Shown piece by piece: positions 30,302-58,805 of a DNA stretch of 64,000 bases. The DNA is from Escherichia phage vB_vPM_PD114, in sequence record MH675927.1. The stretch is one strand, 5' to 3'. The notes below the pieces were generated by a model. The model had not been told where the DNA came from and made no database searches. It worked only from the letters and a program-made list of their open reading frames with translations. The position numbers and the translations under genes were made by a program. Numbering within the stretch: the first letter of the stretch is position 1; every line of letters starts with the position of its first letter.

Positions 30302-30958
30302 TTAGCCTCGAAATACTGTTTTTGTTTCCGCCAGGTGACAATAGAAATCCGCTTTGTTTACAAGAGTGTTGTACACCTCTGGATAAAAATGTTCTTCCTC
30401 TTTGTAACGATCCGCTGTTTCCCTGATTGACTTAGCTTTATCCTTTAGCCAAGCAAAGTGTGCCTCTTCCTCTGTAGCGAAGTAGCCTAAATGCTTACCT
30501 TTACTTCCAGAGGCTTTTGCATAAATCTTACCATCTTTCCTAACATGTGCTCCTAGTAAGTATTTTCTTTCATACCTTTTAGCATAACTTAAGAGTGTAT
30601 TTATGTAAGGAGGAACAAACCTACAATATTCAGGACAATAAACAGTATTTCCTTCAAGAACAAGATCTTTATCTAAAACAAAGCCTTCCACGCTATGTTC
30701 CTGATACCAGTTATCAAAGTTTGAAAAGGTGAACCAAGCATCACACACGGTAACATCTTTATAACCTGGTCTAATGTTTTCCATATTATATGCACGATTA
30801 AACATACCCTTCCAAGCTGCATAAGAAGGGTCTATGAATGTATTAACCCTTTTCCCATTGATAACACCACCTTCCCACAATCTACGTTCAACATCCACAA
30901 TCAAGGGGATTTCTCCCCTCTCTGTGAGAACGGTAACTTTACGTTTACCCTTCTTCAT
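30302..30958 (-). CDS. putative homing endonuclease with AP2-like DNA-binding domain
   Basis: free-standing ORF between nrdA and nrdB; HLGYFATEEEAHFAW resembles AP2 domain; SD aggagaa. Confidence 0.45.
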   Translation of the reverse strand: MKKGKRKVTVLTERGEIPLIVDVERRLWEGGVINGKRVNTFIDPSYAAWKGMFNRAYNMENIRPGYKDVTVCDAWFTFSNFDNWYQEHSVEGFVLDKDLVLEGNTVYCPEYCRFVPPYINTLLSYAKRYERKYLLGAHVRKDGKIYAKASGSKGKHLGYFATEEEAHFAWLKDKAKSIRETADRYKEEEHFYPEVYNTLVNKADFYCHLAETKTVFRG

Positions 30959-36178: not shown

Positions 36179-36754
36179 TTATTTTTCTTCATCAAGAAGA
36201 ATTTTTACTATTTGTTTTCTTCGCTTACTTACTGTACTTTCTGGTGAAATTCCGCGCTTCGTTAGCCAATTTTTATCCTTTTTAGACTGGCATAAAGCTA
36301 TCGCTTCCTTCTCCGCTTTTGCTTCCCTGAATGTCATATCGTGCTTGTCAGCATAAGCTAGGATAGCGTTACACTGCTTACAAACTACACGCAGGTCGTC
36401 TTCTGTTACATACAATAGGCGTAAAACAAAACTTGGGATATCTTCATAACAGGTTAATGTACCTGCTGCATTAATATGGTCTACTTGAAAGTCTTTCATA
36501 CCTCCTGTATGTCCACACAATTCACATTTACAATTCCAAACCTGTTTCGGTTTGCCTGTTTTCTTATCTAAAACTACATTGCCATCTTTGTCCAACCTAT
36601 CGGCTTTAAATCGTACAGATTGGATCTTTTTTATCTTATTCGGGTGTCTCACCCATGCTTTCCTTAAGCAACCCCTTAAATATGTATAAAAGGCTGCTTG
36701 AGTTTTCCAAGGTGTTCCATCTCCCCAAATAATTTTAGGTTCTTTATTTTCCAA
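36179..36754 (-). CDS. HNH endonuclease (free-standing)
   Basis: CELCGH...DHINAAG...CKQCN HNH/zinc motifs; alternative start codon per track. Confidence 0.65.
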   Translation of the reverse strand: MENKEPKIIWGDGTPWKTQAAFYTYLRGCLRKAWVRHPNKIKKIQSVRFKADRLDKDGNVVLDKKTGKPKQVWNCKCELCGHTGGMKDFQVDHINAAGTLTCYEDIPSFVLRLLYVTEDDLRVVCKQCNAILAYADKHDMTFREAKAEKEAIALCQSKKDKNWLTKRGISPESTVSKRRKQIVKILLDEEK

Positions 36755-51952: not shown

Positions 51953-52028
51953 GGTTCCATAGCTCACTGACGAGAGCGCACACCTCATAAGTGTCGAGGG
52001 CAGGGATTGTAACCCTGGGGAACCACCA
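51953..52028 (+). tRNA. tRNA with CAT anticodon (Met or Ile-lysidine), atypical T-loop
   Basis: acceptor GGTTCC/GGAACC, D-arm GCTC-actgacga-GAGC, anticodon loop CTCATAA, 3' ACCA; T-loop ATTGTAA non-canonical, 7:66 mismatch. Confidence 0.45.
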
Positions 52029-52059
52029 TTTAAAAGGAGATGCTATGCATCTCCTATAT

Positions 52060-52145
52060 GCAAGTGTGGTGGAATTGGTGATACACATTGTGCTTAAAAC
52101 GCAACGCTTAAATGATTGAGGGTTCGAATCCCTCCACTTGCACCA
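52060..52145 (+). tRNA. tRNA-Leu (TAA)
   Basis: 7-bp acceptor GCAAGTG/CACTTGC, anticodon loop CTTAAAA, long variable arm, T-arm GAGGGTTCGAATCCCTC, encoded CCA. Confidence 0.7.
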
Positions 52146-52147
52146 AC

Positions 52148-52253
52148 GCCTAGTAGGGTATTTGGTAATTCCGAGGCCATCAAAGCCTGAAAAATATGTT
52201 AGACCGCTTTGTCTAACTAAATACGAAATATGGTTCGATTCCATAACTAGGCT
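52148..52253 (+). ncRNA. atypical 106-nt tRNA-like RNA (possible TCA anticodon hairpin, long extra arm)
   Basis: perfect 7-bp acceptor GCCTAGT/ACTAGGC and canonical T-arm TATGGTTCGATTCCATA but about 30 nt too long; 7-bp extra hairpin gttagac-cgcttt-gtctaac; fold not computed. Confidence 0.3.
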
Positions 52254-52285
52254 TCAATTTAAATAATAATTTTAGTAAAAATATC

Positions 52286-52314
52286 TTGACATTCACTTAG
52301 TTTTTTGTTATAGT
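52286..52314 (+). promoter_or_regulatory. sigma70-like promoter (TTGACA-N17-TATAGT)
   Basis: about 12 nt upstream of tRNA-like gene at 52326. Confidence 0.5.
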
Positions 52315-52325
52315 TACTGTGAAAA

Positions 52326-52407
52326 CGGGGTGTATCTCACCTGACTTCTAATCAGGCGTTAACCGAGTAATTGGAGTATGCAGGTTCGAATCCTGTCACC
52401 CCGACCA
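52326..52407 (+). ncRNA. atypical tRNA-like RNA with TCT (Arg-type) anticodon hairpin, no canonical D-arm
   Basis: 7/7 acceptor CGGGGTG/CACCCCG, T-arm GCAGGTTCGAATCCTGT, ACCA end; anticodon-like hairpin cctga-CTTCTAA-tcagg begins at position 15. Confidence 0.35.
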
Positions 52408-52425
52408 AAAAGTTTTAAAAACTAC

Positions 52426-52454
52426 TTGACAAGCAAGATAGTTTTATGTTAGAT
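52426..52454 (+). promoter_or_regulatory. sigma70-like promoter (TTGACA-N17-TTAGAT)
   Basis: upstream of tRNA-Ser at 52471. Confidence 0.5.
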
Positions 52455-52470
52455 TTAAAGTATGATAACG

Positions 52471-52560
52471 GGAAGGTAGGGCGCAGCGGTGCGCAACCAG
52501 GTTTGAACCCTGGCCCATTGTAGCGATACGGTGATGGTTCGACTCCATTATCTTCCTCCA
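52471..52560 (+). tRNA. tRNA-Ser (TGA)
   Basis: acceptor GGAAGGT/ATCTTCC (one GU), D-stem GCGC, anticodon stem CCAGG/CCTGG loop TTTGAAC, long variable arm, T-arm, CCA; anchored to ORF track at 52531. Confidence 0.65.
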
Positions 52561-52578
52561 AATTCAACTAGGAGCTTT

Positions 52579-52731
52579 ATGAATTATAAAACTATTGGAC
52601 AGGTTGTTACCGGAGTTAAGATTGTAGATAATAAAGTTGTTTATGAGTATTCTAATCTTCAACAATCTGAAGATGGTAAAAATATTCGTATGGTAAAAGC
52701 AGAACAAAAAGATTCCGGTTGTTTTGAATAA
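52579..52731 (+). CDS. hypothetical protein (50 aa)
   Basis: track ORF 52531..52731 overlaps tRNA-Ser; trimmed to ATG after taggagc. Confidence 0.45.
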   Translation: MNYKTIGQVVTGVKIVDNKVVYEYSNLQQSEDGKNIRMVKAEQKDSGCFE

Positions 52732-52739
52732 TTAAGAAC

Positions 52740-52825
52740 GGTAGATTGGTGAAATGGTAGCCACAACAGTTTGCTAAACTGTCGTCGGAAACGGCGTGTA
52801 GGTTCAAGTCCTACATCTACCGCCA
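52740..52825 (+). tRNA. tRNA-Ser (GCT)
   Basis: perfect acceptor GGTAGAT/ATCTACC, anticodon stem ACAGT/ACTGT loop TTGCTAA, long variable arm, T-arm GTAGGTTCAAGTCCTAC, CCA. Confidence 0.7.
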
Positions 52826-52845
52826 AATTTATGCGAGGAGGATGT

Positions 52846-53226
52846 ATGCCAAGCAATGATTATATGCGGGAATACATGAAAACTCGGTGGCAGAAGCGAA
52901 GAGCTTCCGCAATCCTCCAGCTTGGAGGTAAATGTGTTAATTGTGGGTCTGTAGATGACTTGGAATTTGATCATAAAGATTCAAGCGAGAAGAAGTTTTA
53001 TATTAGTCGAATGAGTTCATGCTCTGAGGCTAAATGGCAGGAAGAACTTGCCAAATGTCAACTTTTGTGCCATGACTGTCACATGAAGAAGACAAGAATA
53101 TCCCAAGACATGGGAAACAGAATTAGAACAACGGTGTGTGTTTGCGGGGCAGTATTTTATAGTACAAAGGCTTATGCTGGACATACACGGTGGTGTAAAG
53201 AGTATGCATCGTTAGCCAAGCGGTAA
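52846..53226 (+). CDS. HNH endonuclease (free-standing, inside tRNA cluster)
   Basis: CVNCGS..DHKD..CHDCH HNH motifs; track ORF 52771..53226 begins inside tRNA-Ser, trimmed to ATG after gaggagg; 3' end overlaps tRNA-Lys by about 21 nt. Confidence 0.65.
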   Translation: MPSNDYMREYMKTRWQKRRASAILQLGGKCVNCGSVDDLEFDHKDSSEKKFYISRMSSCSEAKWQEELAKCQLLCHDCHMKKTRISQDMGNRIRTTVCVCGAVFYSTKAYAGHTRWCKEYASLAKR

Positions 53227-53280
53227 GGCACTTGACTTTTAATCAAGGGAGCGAAGGTTCGAATCCTTCACGATGTACCA
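53206..53280 (+). tRNA. tRNA-Lys (TTT)
   Basis: acceptor GCATCGT/ACGATGT (G1-U72), anticodon stem CTTGA/TCAAG loop CTTTTAA, T-arm GAAGGTTCGAATCCTTC, CCA. Confidence 0.7.
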
Positions 53281-53285
53281 AACAC

Positions 53286-53372
53286 GTAGGTATCGCATAG
53301 CGGCAATTGCTGGAGACTGTAAATCTCCTGCCCTTCGGGGCTTCGTTGGTTCGAGTCCAACTACCTGCACCA
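53286..53372 (+). tRNA. tRNA-Tyr (GTA)
   Basis: acceptor GTAGGTA/TACCTGC, anticodon stem GGAGA/TCTCC loop CTGTAAA, long variable arm, T-arm, CCA. Confidence 0.7.
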
Positions 53373-53379
53373 AATTAAA

Positions 53380-53463
53380 GATGGATTGGCCTAGTGGTTG
53401 GGCGACGGACTGTTAATCCGTGAACGAAAGTTCTAGCAAGGTTCAAATCCTTGATCCATCGCC
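53380..53463 (+). tRNA. type II (long variable arm) tRNA with GTT anticodon (Asn-decoding)
   Basis: perfect acceptor GATGGAT/ATCCATC, anticodon stem ACGGA/TCCGT loop CTGTTAA, extra arm gaac-gaaa-gttc, T-arm CAAGGTTCAAATCCTTG, CCA. Confidence 0.5.
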
Positions 53464-53471
53464 AGAATTAT

Positions 53472-53548
53472 GGACTTGTAGAGTTAAGGTAAACCCTCAG
53501 TCGCAAAGAGGCTTCTGGAATTGCAGGTATCGAATCCTGCCGAGTCCA
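53472..53548 (+). ncRNA. degenerate tRNA-like element
   Basis: acceptor GGACTTG/CGAGTCC and 8-nt T-loop GCAGG-TATCGAAT-CCTGC but no canonical 5-7-5 anticodon arm; no CCA. Confidence 0.3.
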
Positions 53549-53554
53549 ATTATT

Positions 53555-53629
53555 GCTCCTATCGTATAACGGCTATTACGGTTGCCTTGTAAGCAACTTA
53601 TCAGGGTTCGAGTCCTTGTGGGAGCACCA
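53555..53629 (+). tRNA. tRNA-Thr (TGT)
   Basis: acceptor GCTCCTA/TGGGAGC, D-arm GTA..TAC, anticodon stem GTTGC/GCAAC loop CTTGTAA, T-arm, CCA. Confidence 0.7.
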
Positions 53630-53652
53630 ATTTTAACTCTAAAGGAGTGTAT

Positions 53653-53976
53653 GTGACAGAAAAAGAGTTAGAGAAATATTTTAATATCAATGTTTTCGAT
53701 GGTTTTGATGATATTGAAGATGTTGAAAGATATTATGAAGTAGAGTTAGATAAGGATAACATTGTAATTCTTTCTGCCACTTATGATTGTGCATATTATG
53801 AAGGTGAATCTCACGTTTATTTTTATGATATGAAAACATCTTTGTTTTATGAAGTACACGCATATCATTGTTCTTGTTATGGTTTAGAAGGTCAGTGGGA
53901 ACCTGAAGAAATAGGTGATTTGAGCTTTACGGTTGCATATCTAAACAGACGTGGTGCATCTACTATTTTAAAATAA
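53653..53976 (+). CDS. hypothetical protein
   Basis: track ORF 53647..53976; probable start at second GTG after aaaggag. Confidence 0.5.
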   Translation: MTEKELEKYFNINVFDGFDDIEDVERYYEVELDKDNIVILSATYDCAYYEGESHVYFYDMKTSLFYEVHAYHCSCYGLEGQWEPEEIGDLSFTVAYLNRRGASTILK

Positions 53977-53990
53977 ATATTAAAAGCCTC

Positions 53991-54020
53991 TTGACAAAGG
54001 GGCTAATAATATGTTAGAGT
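53991..54020 (+). promoter_or_regulatory. sigma70-like promoter (TTGACA-N17-TTAGAG)
   Basis: upstream of tRNA-Gly. Confidence 0.5.
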
Positions 54021-54031
54021 AATATTGTTAA

Positions 54032-54106
54032 GCGGGTATAGTGTTAATGGTAGCATATGAGGTTTCCACCCTCCAGGTGCAGGTTCAAGTCCTGTTACTC
54101 GCTCCA
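54032..54106 (+). tRNA. tRNA-Gly (TCC)
   Basis: acceptor GCGGGTA/TACTCGC (one GU), anticodon loop TTTCCAC, T-arm GCAGGTTCAAGTCCTGT, CCA. Confidence 0.7.
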
Positions 54107-54537
54107 AGATTATTTAAATGGAATCGCTAGAGAAAATTTCTCTTTTCGCTCATGGTTTTCTCCTTCAAACTCTAGCGGTTCTTTTTAAGTGATTTTTTAG
54201 TTTATTGGAGATTCACTGCCTTAGTGTGAGCTAAAATCGAGGAGCCATCGAACTGTCTGATTAATGATTTGCGAATCATTATAGTTTTAAGACCCCGGCA
54301 GTTTTATGGTGTACCTCTTGAATGTGAATGATGACGGGTTTATGGTTATCCTGGTCGTTAAATATCCAAAAACCTATGTTCCCCTTGAGGGCTTGCGCAG
54401 GCAATGCCAATAAGTCCTGCATTTTCATTTAAAAGAGAATTTATAATGGAAAAAGATGAACTTAAGTATGCTAAGCCTCTGGCTTCTGCTGCACGAAAAG
54501 CAGTTCGTCACTTTGTGGTAACACTGAAGTAATTTAT
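54107..54537 (+). other. structured noncoding spacer inside tRNA cluster (candidate small RNAs)
   Basis: 8-bp stem cgctagag/ctctagcg then U-tract (approx 54125-54190); hairpin taatgatt-tgcg-aatcatta (approx 54259-54278); gcagg..cctgc hairpin plus U-tract (approx 54393-54430); no convincing ORF. Confidence 0.35.
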
Positions 54538-54612
54538 TGGAGATTAGCCTAGTGGGAAGGCAACGGCCTTTGAAGTCGTGATGACTAGGTTCGATTCCTA
54601 GATCTCCAGCCA
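54538..54612 (+). tRNA. tRNA-Gln (TTG)
   Basis: perfect acceptor TGGAGAT/ATCTCCA, D-stem GCC/GGC, anticodon loop CTTTGAA, T-arm CTAGGTTCGATTCCTAG, CCA. Confidence 0.7.
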
Positions 54613-54619
54613 AGATTTA

Positions 54620-54695
54620 CAGTGCGTAGCGCAGTTGGTAGCGTGGGAGCCTTGGACGCTTCAGGTCGCAGGTTCGAGTCCTGCCGCACTGACCA
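54620..54695 (+). tRNA. tRNA-Pro (TGG)
   Basis: perfect acceptor CAGTGCG/CGCACTG, D-arm GCGC-AGTTGGTA-GCGT, anticodon loop CTTGGAC, T-arm GCAGGTTCGAGTCCTGC, CCA. Confidence 0.75.
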
Positions 54696-54700
54696 AATTT

Positions 54701-54775
54701 GCAGAGATAGCTGAGACGGATTAGTGCTACCCTGAAAAGGTAGAAAGGATGGATCGTTACCATCTCTCTGCACCA
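54701..54775 (+). tRNA. tRNA-Phe (GAA)
   Basis: perfect acceptor GCAGAGA/TCTCTGC, anticodon stem CTACC/GGTAG loop CTGAAAA, T-arm GATGGATCGTTACCATC, CCA. Confidence 0.7.
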
Positions 54776-54852
54776 AATAACACCATCCAAGGAGTAGACT
54801 TGGTTAACTGTCAATAGCACATTGAGGCTTCTTACAGTGGTGTACTTATTAT

Positions 54853-54937
54853 GGCTAAGTGGTGGAATGGTATACACGATACGCTTAGAACGTATTGCCC
54901 CAAGGGATTGTGAGTTCGAGTCTCACCTTAGCTACCA
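54853..54937 (+). tRNA. tRNA-Leu (TAG)
   Basis: acceptor GGCTAAG/CTTAGCT (G1-U72), anticodon stem ATACG/CGTAT loop CTTAGAA, long variable arm, T-arm GTGAGTTCGAGTCTCAC, CCA. Confidence 0.7.
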
Positions 54938-54952
54938 AATTATTACAGATTG

Positions 54953-55031
54953 CGCGGGATAGAGGAGTCTGGTCGTCCTCGCCAGTTTCATATGCTGGAG
55001 ATCATCGGTTCAAATCCGATTCCCGCCTCCA
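54953..55031 (+). tRNA. tRNA-Met (CAT), possible initiator type
   Basis: acceptor CGCGGGA/TCCCGCC with 1:72 mismatch, D-stem GAGG/CCTC, anticodon loop TTCATAT, T-arm ATCGGTTCAAATCCGAT, CCA. Confidence 0.55.
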
Positions 55032-55089
55032 CTAAATACCTCCCTTCTGGTGTAATGATTAAATTACATTGACACCTCAAGGAACTCAT

Positions 55090-55172
55090 AGCTGGGTAGA
55101 TTTAAAAGAGTATGGTACTCAATATGGCTCCAAACCATAGATCAAGGGGTTCGATTCCTCACCTTGCTGCCA
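55090..55172 (+). ncRNA. tRNA-Trp-like (CCA anticodon) with irregular 5' region
   Basis: anticodon arm TATGG-CTCCAAA-CCATA, D-like arm GAG-TATGGTA-CTC, T-loop TTCGATT, 3' CCTTGCT-G-CCA; only 6/7 acceptor candidate, separated from D-arm by about 11 nt. Confidence 0.35.
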
Positions 55173-55177
55173 ATTAT

Positions 55178-55253
55178 TGTGGTATCGTACAGATGGTTAG
55201 TACACTCGACCGATAATCGAGAAACAACGGTTCGACTCCGTTTACCACGACCA
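55178..55253 (+). tRNA. tRNA-Ile (GAT)
   Basis: 76 nt; acceptor TGTGGTA/TACCACG (U1-G72), D-stem GTAC, anticodon stem CTCGA/TCGAG loop CCGATAA, T-arm AACGGTTCGACTCCGTT, CCA. Confidence 0.6.
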
Positions 55254-58124: not shown

Positions 58125-58805
58125 ATGAAAAACTTAGATTTCATCGGATACCCGCATTATTGCGCCACATACGATGGTCGTATTTTTAGTTTATACACCC
58201 AAAAATTCCTAAGCGAAAATAAGATGCTTGGAGATTACAAGGGAGTAACCATTTGTGAAAATGGTAACAGGATAGAAGAATTACAGCACAGGTTGATAGC
58301 AAAAGCATTTGTGCCTAACCCTGAAAATAAGCCTTTTGTTAATCACAAAGATGGCAACAAACTTAATAATTGTGCAGACAATCTTGAGTGGACAACAGAA
58401 CAAGAGAATACTCTTCACGCTATGTCCACAGGGTTAAGACGAACAGAAGTCATAAATGACTACAGACCTATTCCAGACACTGTTGCTGTGGAAATTTGCA
58501 AACTGTTAGAGCAAGGATCACGTAACAAAGATATCTGTCAGATGTATAATGTGGCACAATCTGTTGTTAGTGATATAAAAGCTGGCAGAACATATAAAGA
58601 CATTTCACAAGACTTTAACTTTAGAAAAATACCCTCTTCCAACAGAATAAGTGAAGATAAAGTCTTAGGGATTTGTGAAAAGCTGCAAGAAAATATTCTA
58701 TCAATAAATAAAATAGCTAAAAAATACGGCGTAAGTTTTAATGTAGTTAAGAGTATTAAAGATAGGAAAACCTATACGTACTTATCTAATAACTACAATT
58801 GGTGA
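58125..58805 (+). CDS. HNH homing endonuclease (intron-encoded)
   Basis: HNH block HRLIAKAFVPNPENKPFVNHKDGNKLNNCADNLEW; SD taggagag; located inside the terL intron. Confidence 0.75.
   Translation: MKNLDFIGYPHYCATYDGRIFSLYTQKFLSENKMLGDYKGVTICENGNRIEELQHRLIAKAFVPNPENKPFVNHKDGNKLNNCADNLEWTTEQENTLHAMSTGLRRTEVINDYRPIPDTVAVEICKLLEQGSRNKDICQMYNVAQSVVSDIKAGRTYKDISQDFNFRKIPSSNRISEDKVLGICEKLQENILSINKIAKKYGVSFNVVKSIKDRKTYTYLSNNYNW

Follow-up and report, generated by a model that had tools for sequence, protein, structure and literature searches.

Within the transfer RNA (tRNA) cluster of Escherichia phage vB_vPM_PD114, a small open reading frame (ORF) resembling an HNH endonuclease gene lies between two tRNA genes and shares its last codons with one of them, and the question raised by this locus is what such a gene is doing there. 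The window referred to throughout is the whole stretch of DNA that was analyzed, 64,000 nucleotides (nt) of sequence record MH675927.1. The ORF, of 126 codons (126 aa), occupies positions 52846..53226 on the + strand and starts 20 nt past tRNA-Ser(GCU) (52740..52825, +; ARAGORN), its upstream neighbor. Downstream is tRNA-Lys(UUU) (53206..53280, +; ARAGORN and Rfam), present in a form referred to here as allele 2, the first 21 nt of which double as the end of the ORF. With a probability of about 0.78, the ORF is taken to be a free-standing homing-endonuclease gene, that is, a selfish 373-nt cassette at the 5′ boundary of tRNA-Lys(UUU) in a phi92-like phage. An active homing gene is proposed because the cassette has a precise site, is present in a minority of genomes, occurs as identical copies across haplotypes, sits in an island without diversity and shows a bias toward synonymous change.

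The tRNA region of the window is 94–98% identical to that of Justusliebigvirus phages (phi92-like, Stephanstirmvirinae), a genus represented by ~47–55 records in the phage collection that was sampled. A BLASTN search with 394 matching records found the HNH ORF in only four of them, Serratia phage KKP_3264 and Escherichia phages EC_OE_11, KKE7M and JohannJBalmer, and in two of these four carrier records it is annotated as a “putative homing endonuclease”. An earlier note on this DNA, made from the sequence alone, had described the ORF as a homing endonuclease gene; a comparison of the tRNA locus across relatives bears out the patchiness expected of such a gene, as the ORF is absent from most of them and the site is empty and intact in ~42 records. 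The cassette occupies a single exact position in a minority of phages that are otherwise 97–99% identical. The sequence of empty alleles is GATAA(T)TTTATAC followed directly by ATCGTTAGC. In filled alleles, GATAATTTATAC is followed by GAGGAGG, the ORF and GAGTATGC, after which ATCGTTAGC resumes, and the left junction consists of TTTATAC joined to GAGGAGG. Alignment to the empty alleles yields base-precise junctions and an insert of 373 nt at 52835..53207 (+). The insert is flanked by a 5-nt direct repeat, TATGC, at 52830–52834 and 53203–53207; the left copy reads TATGC in the window, and TATAC in the other four HNH-carrying phages and in all empty sites.

The point of insertion falls between nt 2 and 3 of tRNA-Lys, so that the insert supplies a new G-C for nt 1–2 of the tRNA. 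Nucleotide 1 is therefore G in all five filled alleles (G1·U72), versus A in every empty allele examined (A1-U72). Both the window and KKP_3264 lack a 127-nt spacer that separates tRNA-Ser(GCU) from the insertion point in arall, EC_OE_11, KKE7M and others and that reaches to within a few bases of the left junction; the deletion junction is at 52825..52826.

Evidence for recent movement comes from the diversity of the gene and of its surroundings. The four GenBank copies, which originate from Poland, India (two) and Switzerland, differ by 0–1 nt per 381, and they occupy three haplotypes of the upstream spacer and two of the downstream Asn-Thr spacer. The latter, a 90-nt stretch between tRNA-Asn and tRNA-Thr at 53465–53554, exists in the genus as two strongly divergent haplotypes that include an 8-nt indel, and both are found together with the HNH gene. 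Among public contigs, ~20 encode the exact protein of the window and ~20 more carry the common allele of the gene. Five independent public contigs with the HNH allele of the window and 1.5-kb flanks share an island of zero diversity of ~590 nt (52737..53327). Outside of it, the same contigs carry 8–12 single-nucleotide polymorphisms per 1.4 kb, both Asn-Thr haplotypes are represented, and a segment of ~330 nt at ~54202–54530 is variably present. The island is likely a co-conversion tract.

The distribution of the gene also departs from overall relatedness. Over the adjacent 24 kb, the genomes most similar to the window lack the gene (W22, 99.0% identity; ECGD1, 98.9%; PHB05, 98.7%), ahead of the four that carry it (KKP_3264, 98.6%; JohannJBalmer, 98.3%; KKE7M, 97.9%; EC_OE_11, 97.7%). 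In this part of the genome, at least, the HNH-carrying phages do not form a clade. The window allele and the common allele of the gene differ at 12 nt, nine of these differences being synonymous, and by two amino-acid changes (D77A and Y105H). Since synonymous changes dominate between the two alleles, the gene is under purifying selection, with no decay; none of ~67 public copies contains a frameshift or a premature stop.

As the earlier note had it, the ORF lies between tRNA-Ser(GCT) and tRNA-Lys, ARAGORN placing the two tRNAs on either side of 52846..53226, and the longest frame does open inside tRNA-Ser: the mechanical ORF list gives 52771..53226 (151 aa), the TTG start of which falls within 52740..52825. 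The true start codon is almost certainly the ATG at 52846, judging from the sequence, because a Shine-Dalgarno motif, GAGGAGG (52835..52841, +), is located 4 nt ahead of it, and because the other in-frame ATG, at 52831, reads ATA in all four related HNH-carrying copies (4/4). The Shine-Dalgarno motif is also formed by the first bases of the insert. At the other end, the D loop of tRNA-Lys contains the TAA stop (53224–53226). The overlap of seven codons and about 21 nt described in the earlier note holds exactly: 21 nt (GCA TCG TTA GCC AAG CGG TAA), equal to tRNA nt 1–21 and thus to part of the acceptor stem and D arm, make up the final six sense codons and the stop. The tRNA itself has an Rfam score of 72.8 bits, the highest of all tRNAs in the cluster. 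With 348 homologs at E ≤ 1e-5 and matches to PHROG 4234, 3106 and 2255 (“HNH endonuclease”) at E = 2.9e-25, 6e-17 and 5.7e-16, respectively, the frame is not a chance one. Its base composition gives no signal of foreign origin (~41% GC, vs. 37–41% nearby).

The predicted protein has two modules. In an alignment of 74 homologs, residues C30, C33, D42, H43, E67, Q72-L73-L74-C75, H79 and K82 are invariant, and position 78 is Cys in 63/74 and His in 10/74. The CxxC…DH…CxxCH core is intact in the HNH protein of the window; by comparison with zinc-containing HNH enzymes, C30/C33 and C75/C78 would be the [CxxC]2 zinc site, and D42-H43 together with H79 the catalytic pair. Toward the C terminus, C98 and C100 are near-invariant in the same alignment, and C98-x-C100…H113-x3-C117 is invariant in close relatives of the protein. 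An AlphaFold2 model built with the homolog alignment (predicted local distance difference test score of 92.7) has an N-terminal helix, strands at 39–43 and 71–75 and a helix at 76–86, the strands and helix of the core being parted by an inserted helix; the C terminus consists of a small hairpin followed by a helix at 107–125, with the tRNA-encoded tail ASLAKR forming the end of this last helix. In a Foldseek comparison of the model with the Protein Data Bank (PDB), the top matches were all HNH domains (CBASS Cap5, Gme HNH nickase, T5 SciA and HNH-Cascade), and C2H2 zinc fingers appeared among lower-ranked, weak matches (E 2–9). On the model, C98-x-C100…H113-x3-C117 is read as a beta-beta-alpha zinc finger, which would plausibly serve as the DNA-recognition module. 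A family-profile search of PDB sequences aligned the CxxCH…K helix with that of GVE2 HNH (5h0m), at only E = 0.36, and a search of PDB chains with the single protein was discarded, its lone match being a chance cytochrome. Conservation and model thus show an ORF that, as predicted, encodes an intact protein with an HNH/zinc nuclease core and a C-terminal zinc finger.

The neighboring tRNA gene exists in two forms. The genus has two tRNA-Lys(UUU) alleles, which are the same in their acceptor and T arms and diverge across the D and anticodon arms. Records with allele 1 number ~36 and include phi92, W22 and PATM; ~10 records have allele 2, the anticodon stem-loop of which resembles that of E. coli tRNA-Lys. 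This chimeric pattern suggests recombination inside the tRNA-Lys gene. Allele 2 is present in 5/5 genomes with the HNH gene vs. 5/~35 without it (arall, PaulScherrer, EmilieFrey, AV123 and alia), for which Fisher’s test, uncorrected for phylogeny, gives p = 4e-4. Two readings fit equally: the gene may have entered genomes that already had allele 2, or its product may cut allele 1 and drag allele 2 in by co-conversion. Import of allele 2 together with the HNH gene is not claimed, as the signal is too weak (a similarity to the tRNA-Lys of the contigs with the nearest homologs of 0.74–0.77, vs. 0.62–0.64 for allele 1).

A link to tRNA genes extends to the family as a whole. Six distant GenBank homologs were inspected, from phages of Pectobacterium, Stenotrophomonas, Gordonia, Streptomyces and Mycobacterium (two), and all six belong to tRNA arrays, where they have the orientation of the tRNAs and are directly upstream of one; 4/6 run into it. 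In a set of 80 IMG/VR loci, tRNAs occur within 1.5 kb of the HNH gene at 38; at 30, a tRNA lies ≤100 nt past the stop codon (at 28 of these on the HNH strand), and at 20 the ORF extends into a tRNA of its own strand. Overlap lengths recur because the tRNA sequence itself offers stop triplets: overlaps of 10 nt use U8-A9-G10 (TAG/TAA), those of 38–39 nt use the TAA of the anticodon loop, and the 21-nt overlap of the window uses that of the D loop. Bacterial and archaeal assemblies, queried with a 4-sequence alignment, contributed 64 loci, 20 of which are tRNA-adjacent, including tRNA arrays on Mycobacterium- and Actinomycetota-assigned contigs.

Adjacency to a tRNA follows the C-terminal motif and, in part, the kind of tRNA. 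Among ~85 homologs, those with the CxC motif are tRNA-adjacent in 38/44 cases, compared with 6/42 for those lacking it (Fisher p = 1e-11), and a neighbor-joining tree parts the two groups; members with CxC have been seen in proteobacterial and actinobacterial phages as well as in tRNA arrays of bacteria. In 14/38 cases the tRNA that follows is a tRNA-Lys, vs. 9.3% of all tRNAs at these loci (p = 4e-6; 84 loci, i.e., the 80 from IMG/VR, the six GenBank homologs and four contigs with the closest homologs, minus a few that could not be scored). Family loci are phylogenetically non-independent and the tree is a quick one, and a second IMG/VR census, biased because it was seeded by Lys-adjacent queries, was left out of the tRNA-Lys statistics. 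Since the upstream neighbor varies, the bias toward tRNA-Lys goes beyond plain array synteny. The closest homologs (59–67% identity) adjoin a tRNA-Lys or stand two genes away from one, and small sub-clades retain a single isotype (Trp or Leu). Examination of 10-kb flanks revealed solitary HNH-tRNA pairs in some phages; for example, the sole tRNA in 20 kb at locus L167 is a tRNA-Lys(CUU) that is overlapped by 10 nt. Taken together, these patterns suggest an HNH lineage that tracks tRNA genes, and tRNA-Lys above all.

A broader proposal is that the HNH clade with the CxC…H…C zinc finger is specialized for tRNA genes, recognizes the tRNA gene itself and comprises isotype-faithful sublineages (mostly for tRNA-Lys), such that the HNH-tRNA pair would be a mobile module that builds and reshuffles arrays and carries tRNA-Lys alleles between phages. 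This is a tentative idea, and one that may well prove wrong. Two side observations touch on these tRNA-Lys neighborhoods. On three unrelated IMG/VR contigs (L012, L018 and L035), an HNH homolog lies between two tRNA-Lys genes, with anticodons CUU and UUU. On IMG/VR contig 3300048834_000246 (L010/L169), the tRNA overlapped by an HNH homolog is called a suppressor by ARAGORN (anticodon tta), and its loop, CTTTTAA, is like that of tRNA-Lys(UUU); the gene is a tRNA-Lys called out of register or else an ochre suppressor that arose from a tRNA-Lys.

The gene is probably expressed as part of a pre-tRNA polycistron, without a promoter or terminator of its own, because the only promoter-like sites are located upstream of the tRNAs and because no terminator-like site was found before 55367. 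Of the two promoter-like sites, both of which are consensus matches only, TTGACA-18-TAGATT (52426..52455, +), upstream of tRNA-Ser(UGA), is a candidate for the start of the transcript carrying the HNH message; the second is at 52286–52314. RNase P cleavage at position +1 of tRNA-Lys would produce an HNH message devoid of a stop codon, since the stop lies inside the mature tRNA, and would keep the level of the enzyme low. A hairpin that could hide the Shine-Dalgarno motif, pairing GGAGGAU with AUCCUCC at ~52911–52917, was considered and rejected; it occurs in the minimum-free-energy fold, which is no better than those of shuffled sequences (z = −0.9).

Homing would proceed along the lines established for T4 SegB/E/F/G and I-TevI, from which its steps are inferred. 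In a mixed infection, the enzyme would nick or cut the HNH-less allele in or beside tRNA-Lys, and recombinational repair from the HNH-carrying genome would copy the gene along with a few hundred flanking bases. The co-copied flank would include the start of tRNA-Lys and probably its allele as well. Marker exclusion in co-infections, which the earlier note raised, may be a consequence. The recognition site may lie within the tRNA gene, to judge indirectly from the position of the insert (tRNA-Lys nt 2/3), from the A1G change and from the adjacency to tRNAs across the family. A common DNA target could not be inferred among the tRNA-Lys genes beside related HNHs, as these tRNAs are 57–78% identical and have little in common beyond the anticodon loop and T loop.

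Several observations weigh against an active homing gene. The Pfam HNH profile, PF01844, scores 15.3 bits (E = 0.023), under its gathering cut-off of 21.4 bits, and its precomputed match is present in a minority of the homologs; a search of NCBIfam with the protein gave no match. The HNH domain assignment of the earlier note is upheld by the strong PHROG matches and falls short in Pfam. The structural matches to HNH domains are weak (E 0.1–0.7, TM-score ~0.3–0.38), and K70 aligns with the Asn of GVE2 HNH (PDB 5h0m), so that the canonical Asn of H-N-H is replaced by Lys. The gene is rare in the genus (~10%) and has not swept through it despite ~40 public contigs. The only fixed differences between filled alleles and allele-2 empty sites are tRNA-Lys nt 1 and the disrupted junction. 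Repeated loss could in principle be the source of the patchy presence, an explanation disfavored because identical copies are found on divergent flanks. The sub-threshold Pfam score, the missing Asn and the low frequency in the genus would also suit an inactive relic, in which an HNH-derived ORF lost catalysis with the change from Asn to Lys and persists, or hitchhikes, beside tRNA-Lys. Such a relic is nevertheless very improbable. Position 70 is Lys in 66/74 homologs and Asn in 2/74; because Lys is the norm, the family is best described from its alignment as an “H-K-H” variant rather than as bearing a recent lesion, and the metal/zinc ligands and the general-base His are all intact. The uninterrupted frame of the ~67 public copies, the mostly synonymous changes between alleles and the recent spread of identical copies over haplotypes are likewise hard to reconcile with a dead gene.

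A nuclease that has been domesticated, and that serves the phage by degrading competitor or host DNA, by reshuffling tRNA genes or by ferrying a useful tRNA-Lys allele, is unlikely, if less so than a relic. Purifying selection would be expected of it, but an actively homing element would show such selection too. The strict linkage in the genus to one tRNA-Lys allele (5/5 vs. 5/~35, p = 4e-4) and the solitary HNH-tRNA pairs, with no other tRNA within 20 kb, also fit a cargo-carrying role, and tRNA-Lys variants are known as anti-defense cargo: the PARIS nuclease AriB acts on tRNA-Lys, and T5 has a tRNA-Lys variant that neutralizes PARIS (PMC11464382). Yet most of the genus does without the gene, including the five phages with the same allele (arall, PaulScherrer, EmilieFrey, AV123 and alia), and no benefit to the phage is apparent in these data. 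Least probable of all, and only marginally credible, is an HNH enzyme linked to packaging (terminase- or cos-associated) or one that nicks the genome like T5 SciA. It would draw on a weak match to phrog_4581 (“terminase small subunit”, E = 5e-5), on the weak fold matches to SciA and on an HNH plus zinc-ribbon architecture like that of the cos-site nickases of PMC3592412; the gene is located in the tRNA array, distant from the packaging genes, ~90% of the genus lacks it yet packages normally, and the CxC-less relatives without a tRNA link form a separate clade. The homing-endonuclease reading thus remains the favored one.

Elsewhere in the window, the three further endonuclease genes listed in the earlier note are real: 30302..30958 (−), 36179..36754 (−) and 58125..58805 (+) match PHROG HNH families 953, 1985 and 59 (E = 1e-49 to 1e-66), and the last also has Pfam HNH_3 and helix-turn-helix matches. 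They belong to three different PHROG families, distinct from those of the HNH beside tRNA-Lys, and none is a paralog of it. The region 28000–52000 is matched essentially in full (99–100%) by only four phages, UAB_1, VivaForever, phi92 and VEcB (five records); most records cover 97% of it in two pieces, and because of these two pieces at least one of 30302–30958 and 36179–36754 may also be an insert that is present in some phages and absent from others.

The array itself comprises 15 tRNA genes, all on the + strand and spanning 51953–55253 according to ARAGORN, with which Rfam agrees. An additional tRNA-like sequence at 52326–52404 (+) is recognized by Rfam (40 bits, above the gathering score) and not called by ARAGORN; PATM has a “tRNA-Undet” annotated at what is apparently the corresponding place. 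Between tRNA-Ser(UGA) and tRNA-Ser(GCU) is a 50-aa ORF (52579–52731, +) of PHROG 22441 (E = 1e-39), most of which is removed by a 134-nt deletion in EC_OE_11, KKE7M and JohannJBalmer, all with the HNH gene, and in alia, which lacks it. The segment of ~330 nt at ~54202–54530, between tRNA-Gly and tRNA-Gln, is present in the window and arall, whereas KKP_3264, EC_OE_11 and several metagenomic contigs lack it. A 42-aa ORF in the segment (54404–54529) is similar to PHROG 1457 (“lysis inhibition; accessory protein”, E = 2.5e-12) over the C-terminal third of that family only and may be a truncated gene. Finally, PATM (L098, 3210–3569) and L267 (2983–3342) encode a different HNH protein of 119 aa, matching PHROG 2255/3106 and distantly related to that of the window. 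Its gene, which the window lacks, is located between tRNA-Gln and tRNA-Pro and ends 1 nt before tRNA-Pro; the tRNA array of the genus therefore has at least two alternative sites of HNH insertion.

The HNH gene accounts for local mosaicism in the tRNA array of this phage, and the HNH/tRNA-Lys region is best excluded from phylogenies. It also offers a tractable system, since JohannJBalmer (Bas62), which carries the gene, and PaulScherrer (Bas60) and EmilieFrey (Bas61), which do not, are available in one public collection with E. coli K-12 hosts. The stop codon within a tRNA represents a case in which tRNA processing may limit the expression of a potentially toxic nuclease. The association of the family with tRNA genes, and with tRNA-Lys in particular, is the less expected part of these findings. 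Recognition of tRNA genes by these enzymes, if real, would go some way toward explaining the assembly and exchange of tRNA arrays in phages, and would provide a route for the spread of anti-defense tRNA-Lys variants. tRNA-Lys is also attacked by the nucleases PrrC and RloC. Given PARIS, the linkage to a tRNA-Lys allele is worth attention, and a functional connection between the two is conjecture.

As a general phenomenon, the presence of a homing endonuclease in a phage tRNA cluster is already known from T4 and T5. SegB of T4 is encoded by a free-standing ORF in the tRNA cluster, is co-transcribed with the tRNAs and is absent from the close relatives T2L, RB1 and RB3 (PMC2330249). When tRNA-Arg matures, segB is cut after its last sense codon and ahead of its stop, a proposed brake on its expression, and SegB has been shown experimentally to drive preferential inheritance of the tRNA region and to recognize the T-psi-C motif GGTTCRANTCC (PMC2330249). 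The HNH gene of the window is likewise free-standing in a tRNA cluster, patchy among relatives and equipped with a stop codon inside a tRNA. In contrast, SegB is a GIY-YIG enzyme without sequence relation to the HNH, such that the arrangement is shared and the ancestry separate; the target and homing of SegB are experimental, whereas the HNH is known here from sequence, and the overlap in the window is 21 nt and extends into the D loop. The precedents from T5 are hegA, hegC and hegD, HNH-type ORFs (the F-Tfl enzymes) on the tRNA strand of a tRNA array. Like the HNH gene of the window, two of them run into the 5′ end of the tRNA that follows, hegC by 14 nt and hegD by 23 nt. The three genes represent a different HNH subfamily (~190 aa; InterPro IPR002711 and IPR010902 in the record) without the C-terminal CxC zinc finger, and homology with hegC was rejected, as the BLASTP match covers only an 8-residue DH motif (E = 0.046).

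Similarities in architecture and in setting extend beyond these two phages. The zinc-ribbon HNH nickases of PMC3592412 and the GVE2 HNH resemble the window protein in having a small [CxxC]2 HNH core with an extra zinc module; they differ in lying beside terminase/cos, in serving packaging and in retaining the Asn of H-N-H, which is Lys in the window family. HNH genes are also noted in the tRNA arrays of mycobacteriophages and mycobacteria (PMC5966550 and PMC6409571) and in cyanobacterial L-arrays (PMC8421152), where they are proposed to spread or diversify tRNA arrays. In the HNH and homing passages of these three papers, neither the tRNA-Lys bias, the stop codon within a tRNA, the CxC clade nor the solitary pairs were found. 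The three papers survey gene content, and their hosts are actinobacterial and cyanobacterial, as opposed to the enterobacterial phage considered here. True homologs of the window protein (30–47% identity) occur in such arrays, namely those of Cali, MkaliMitinis3, PegLeg and Mycobacterium alsense.

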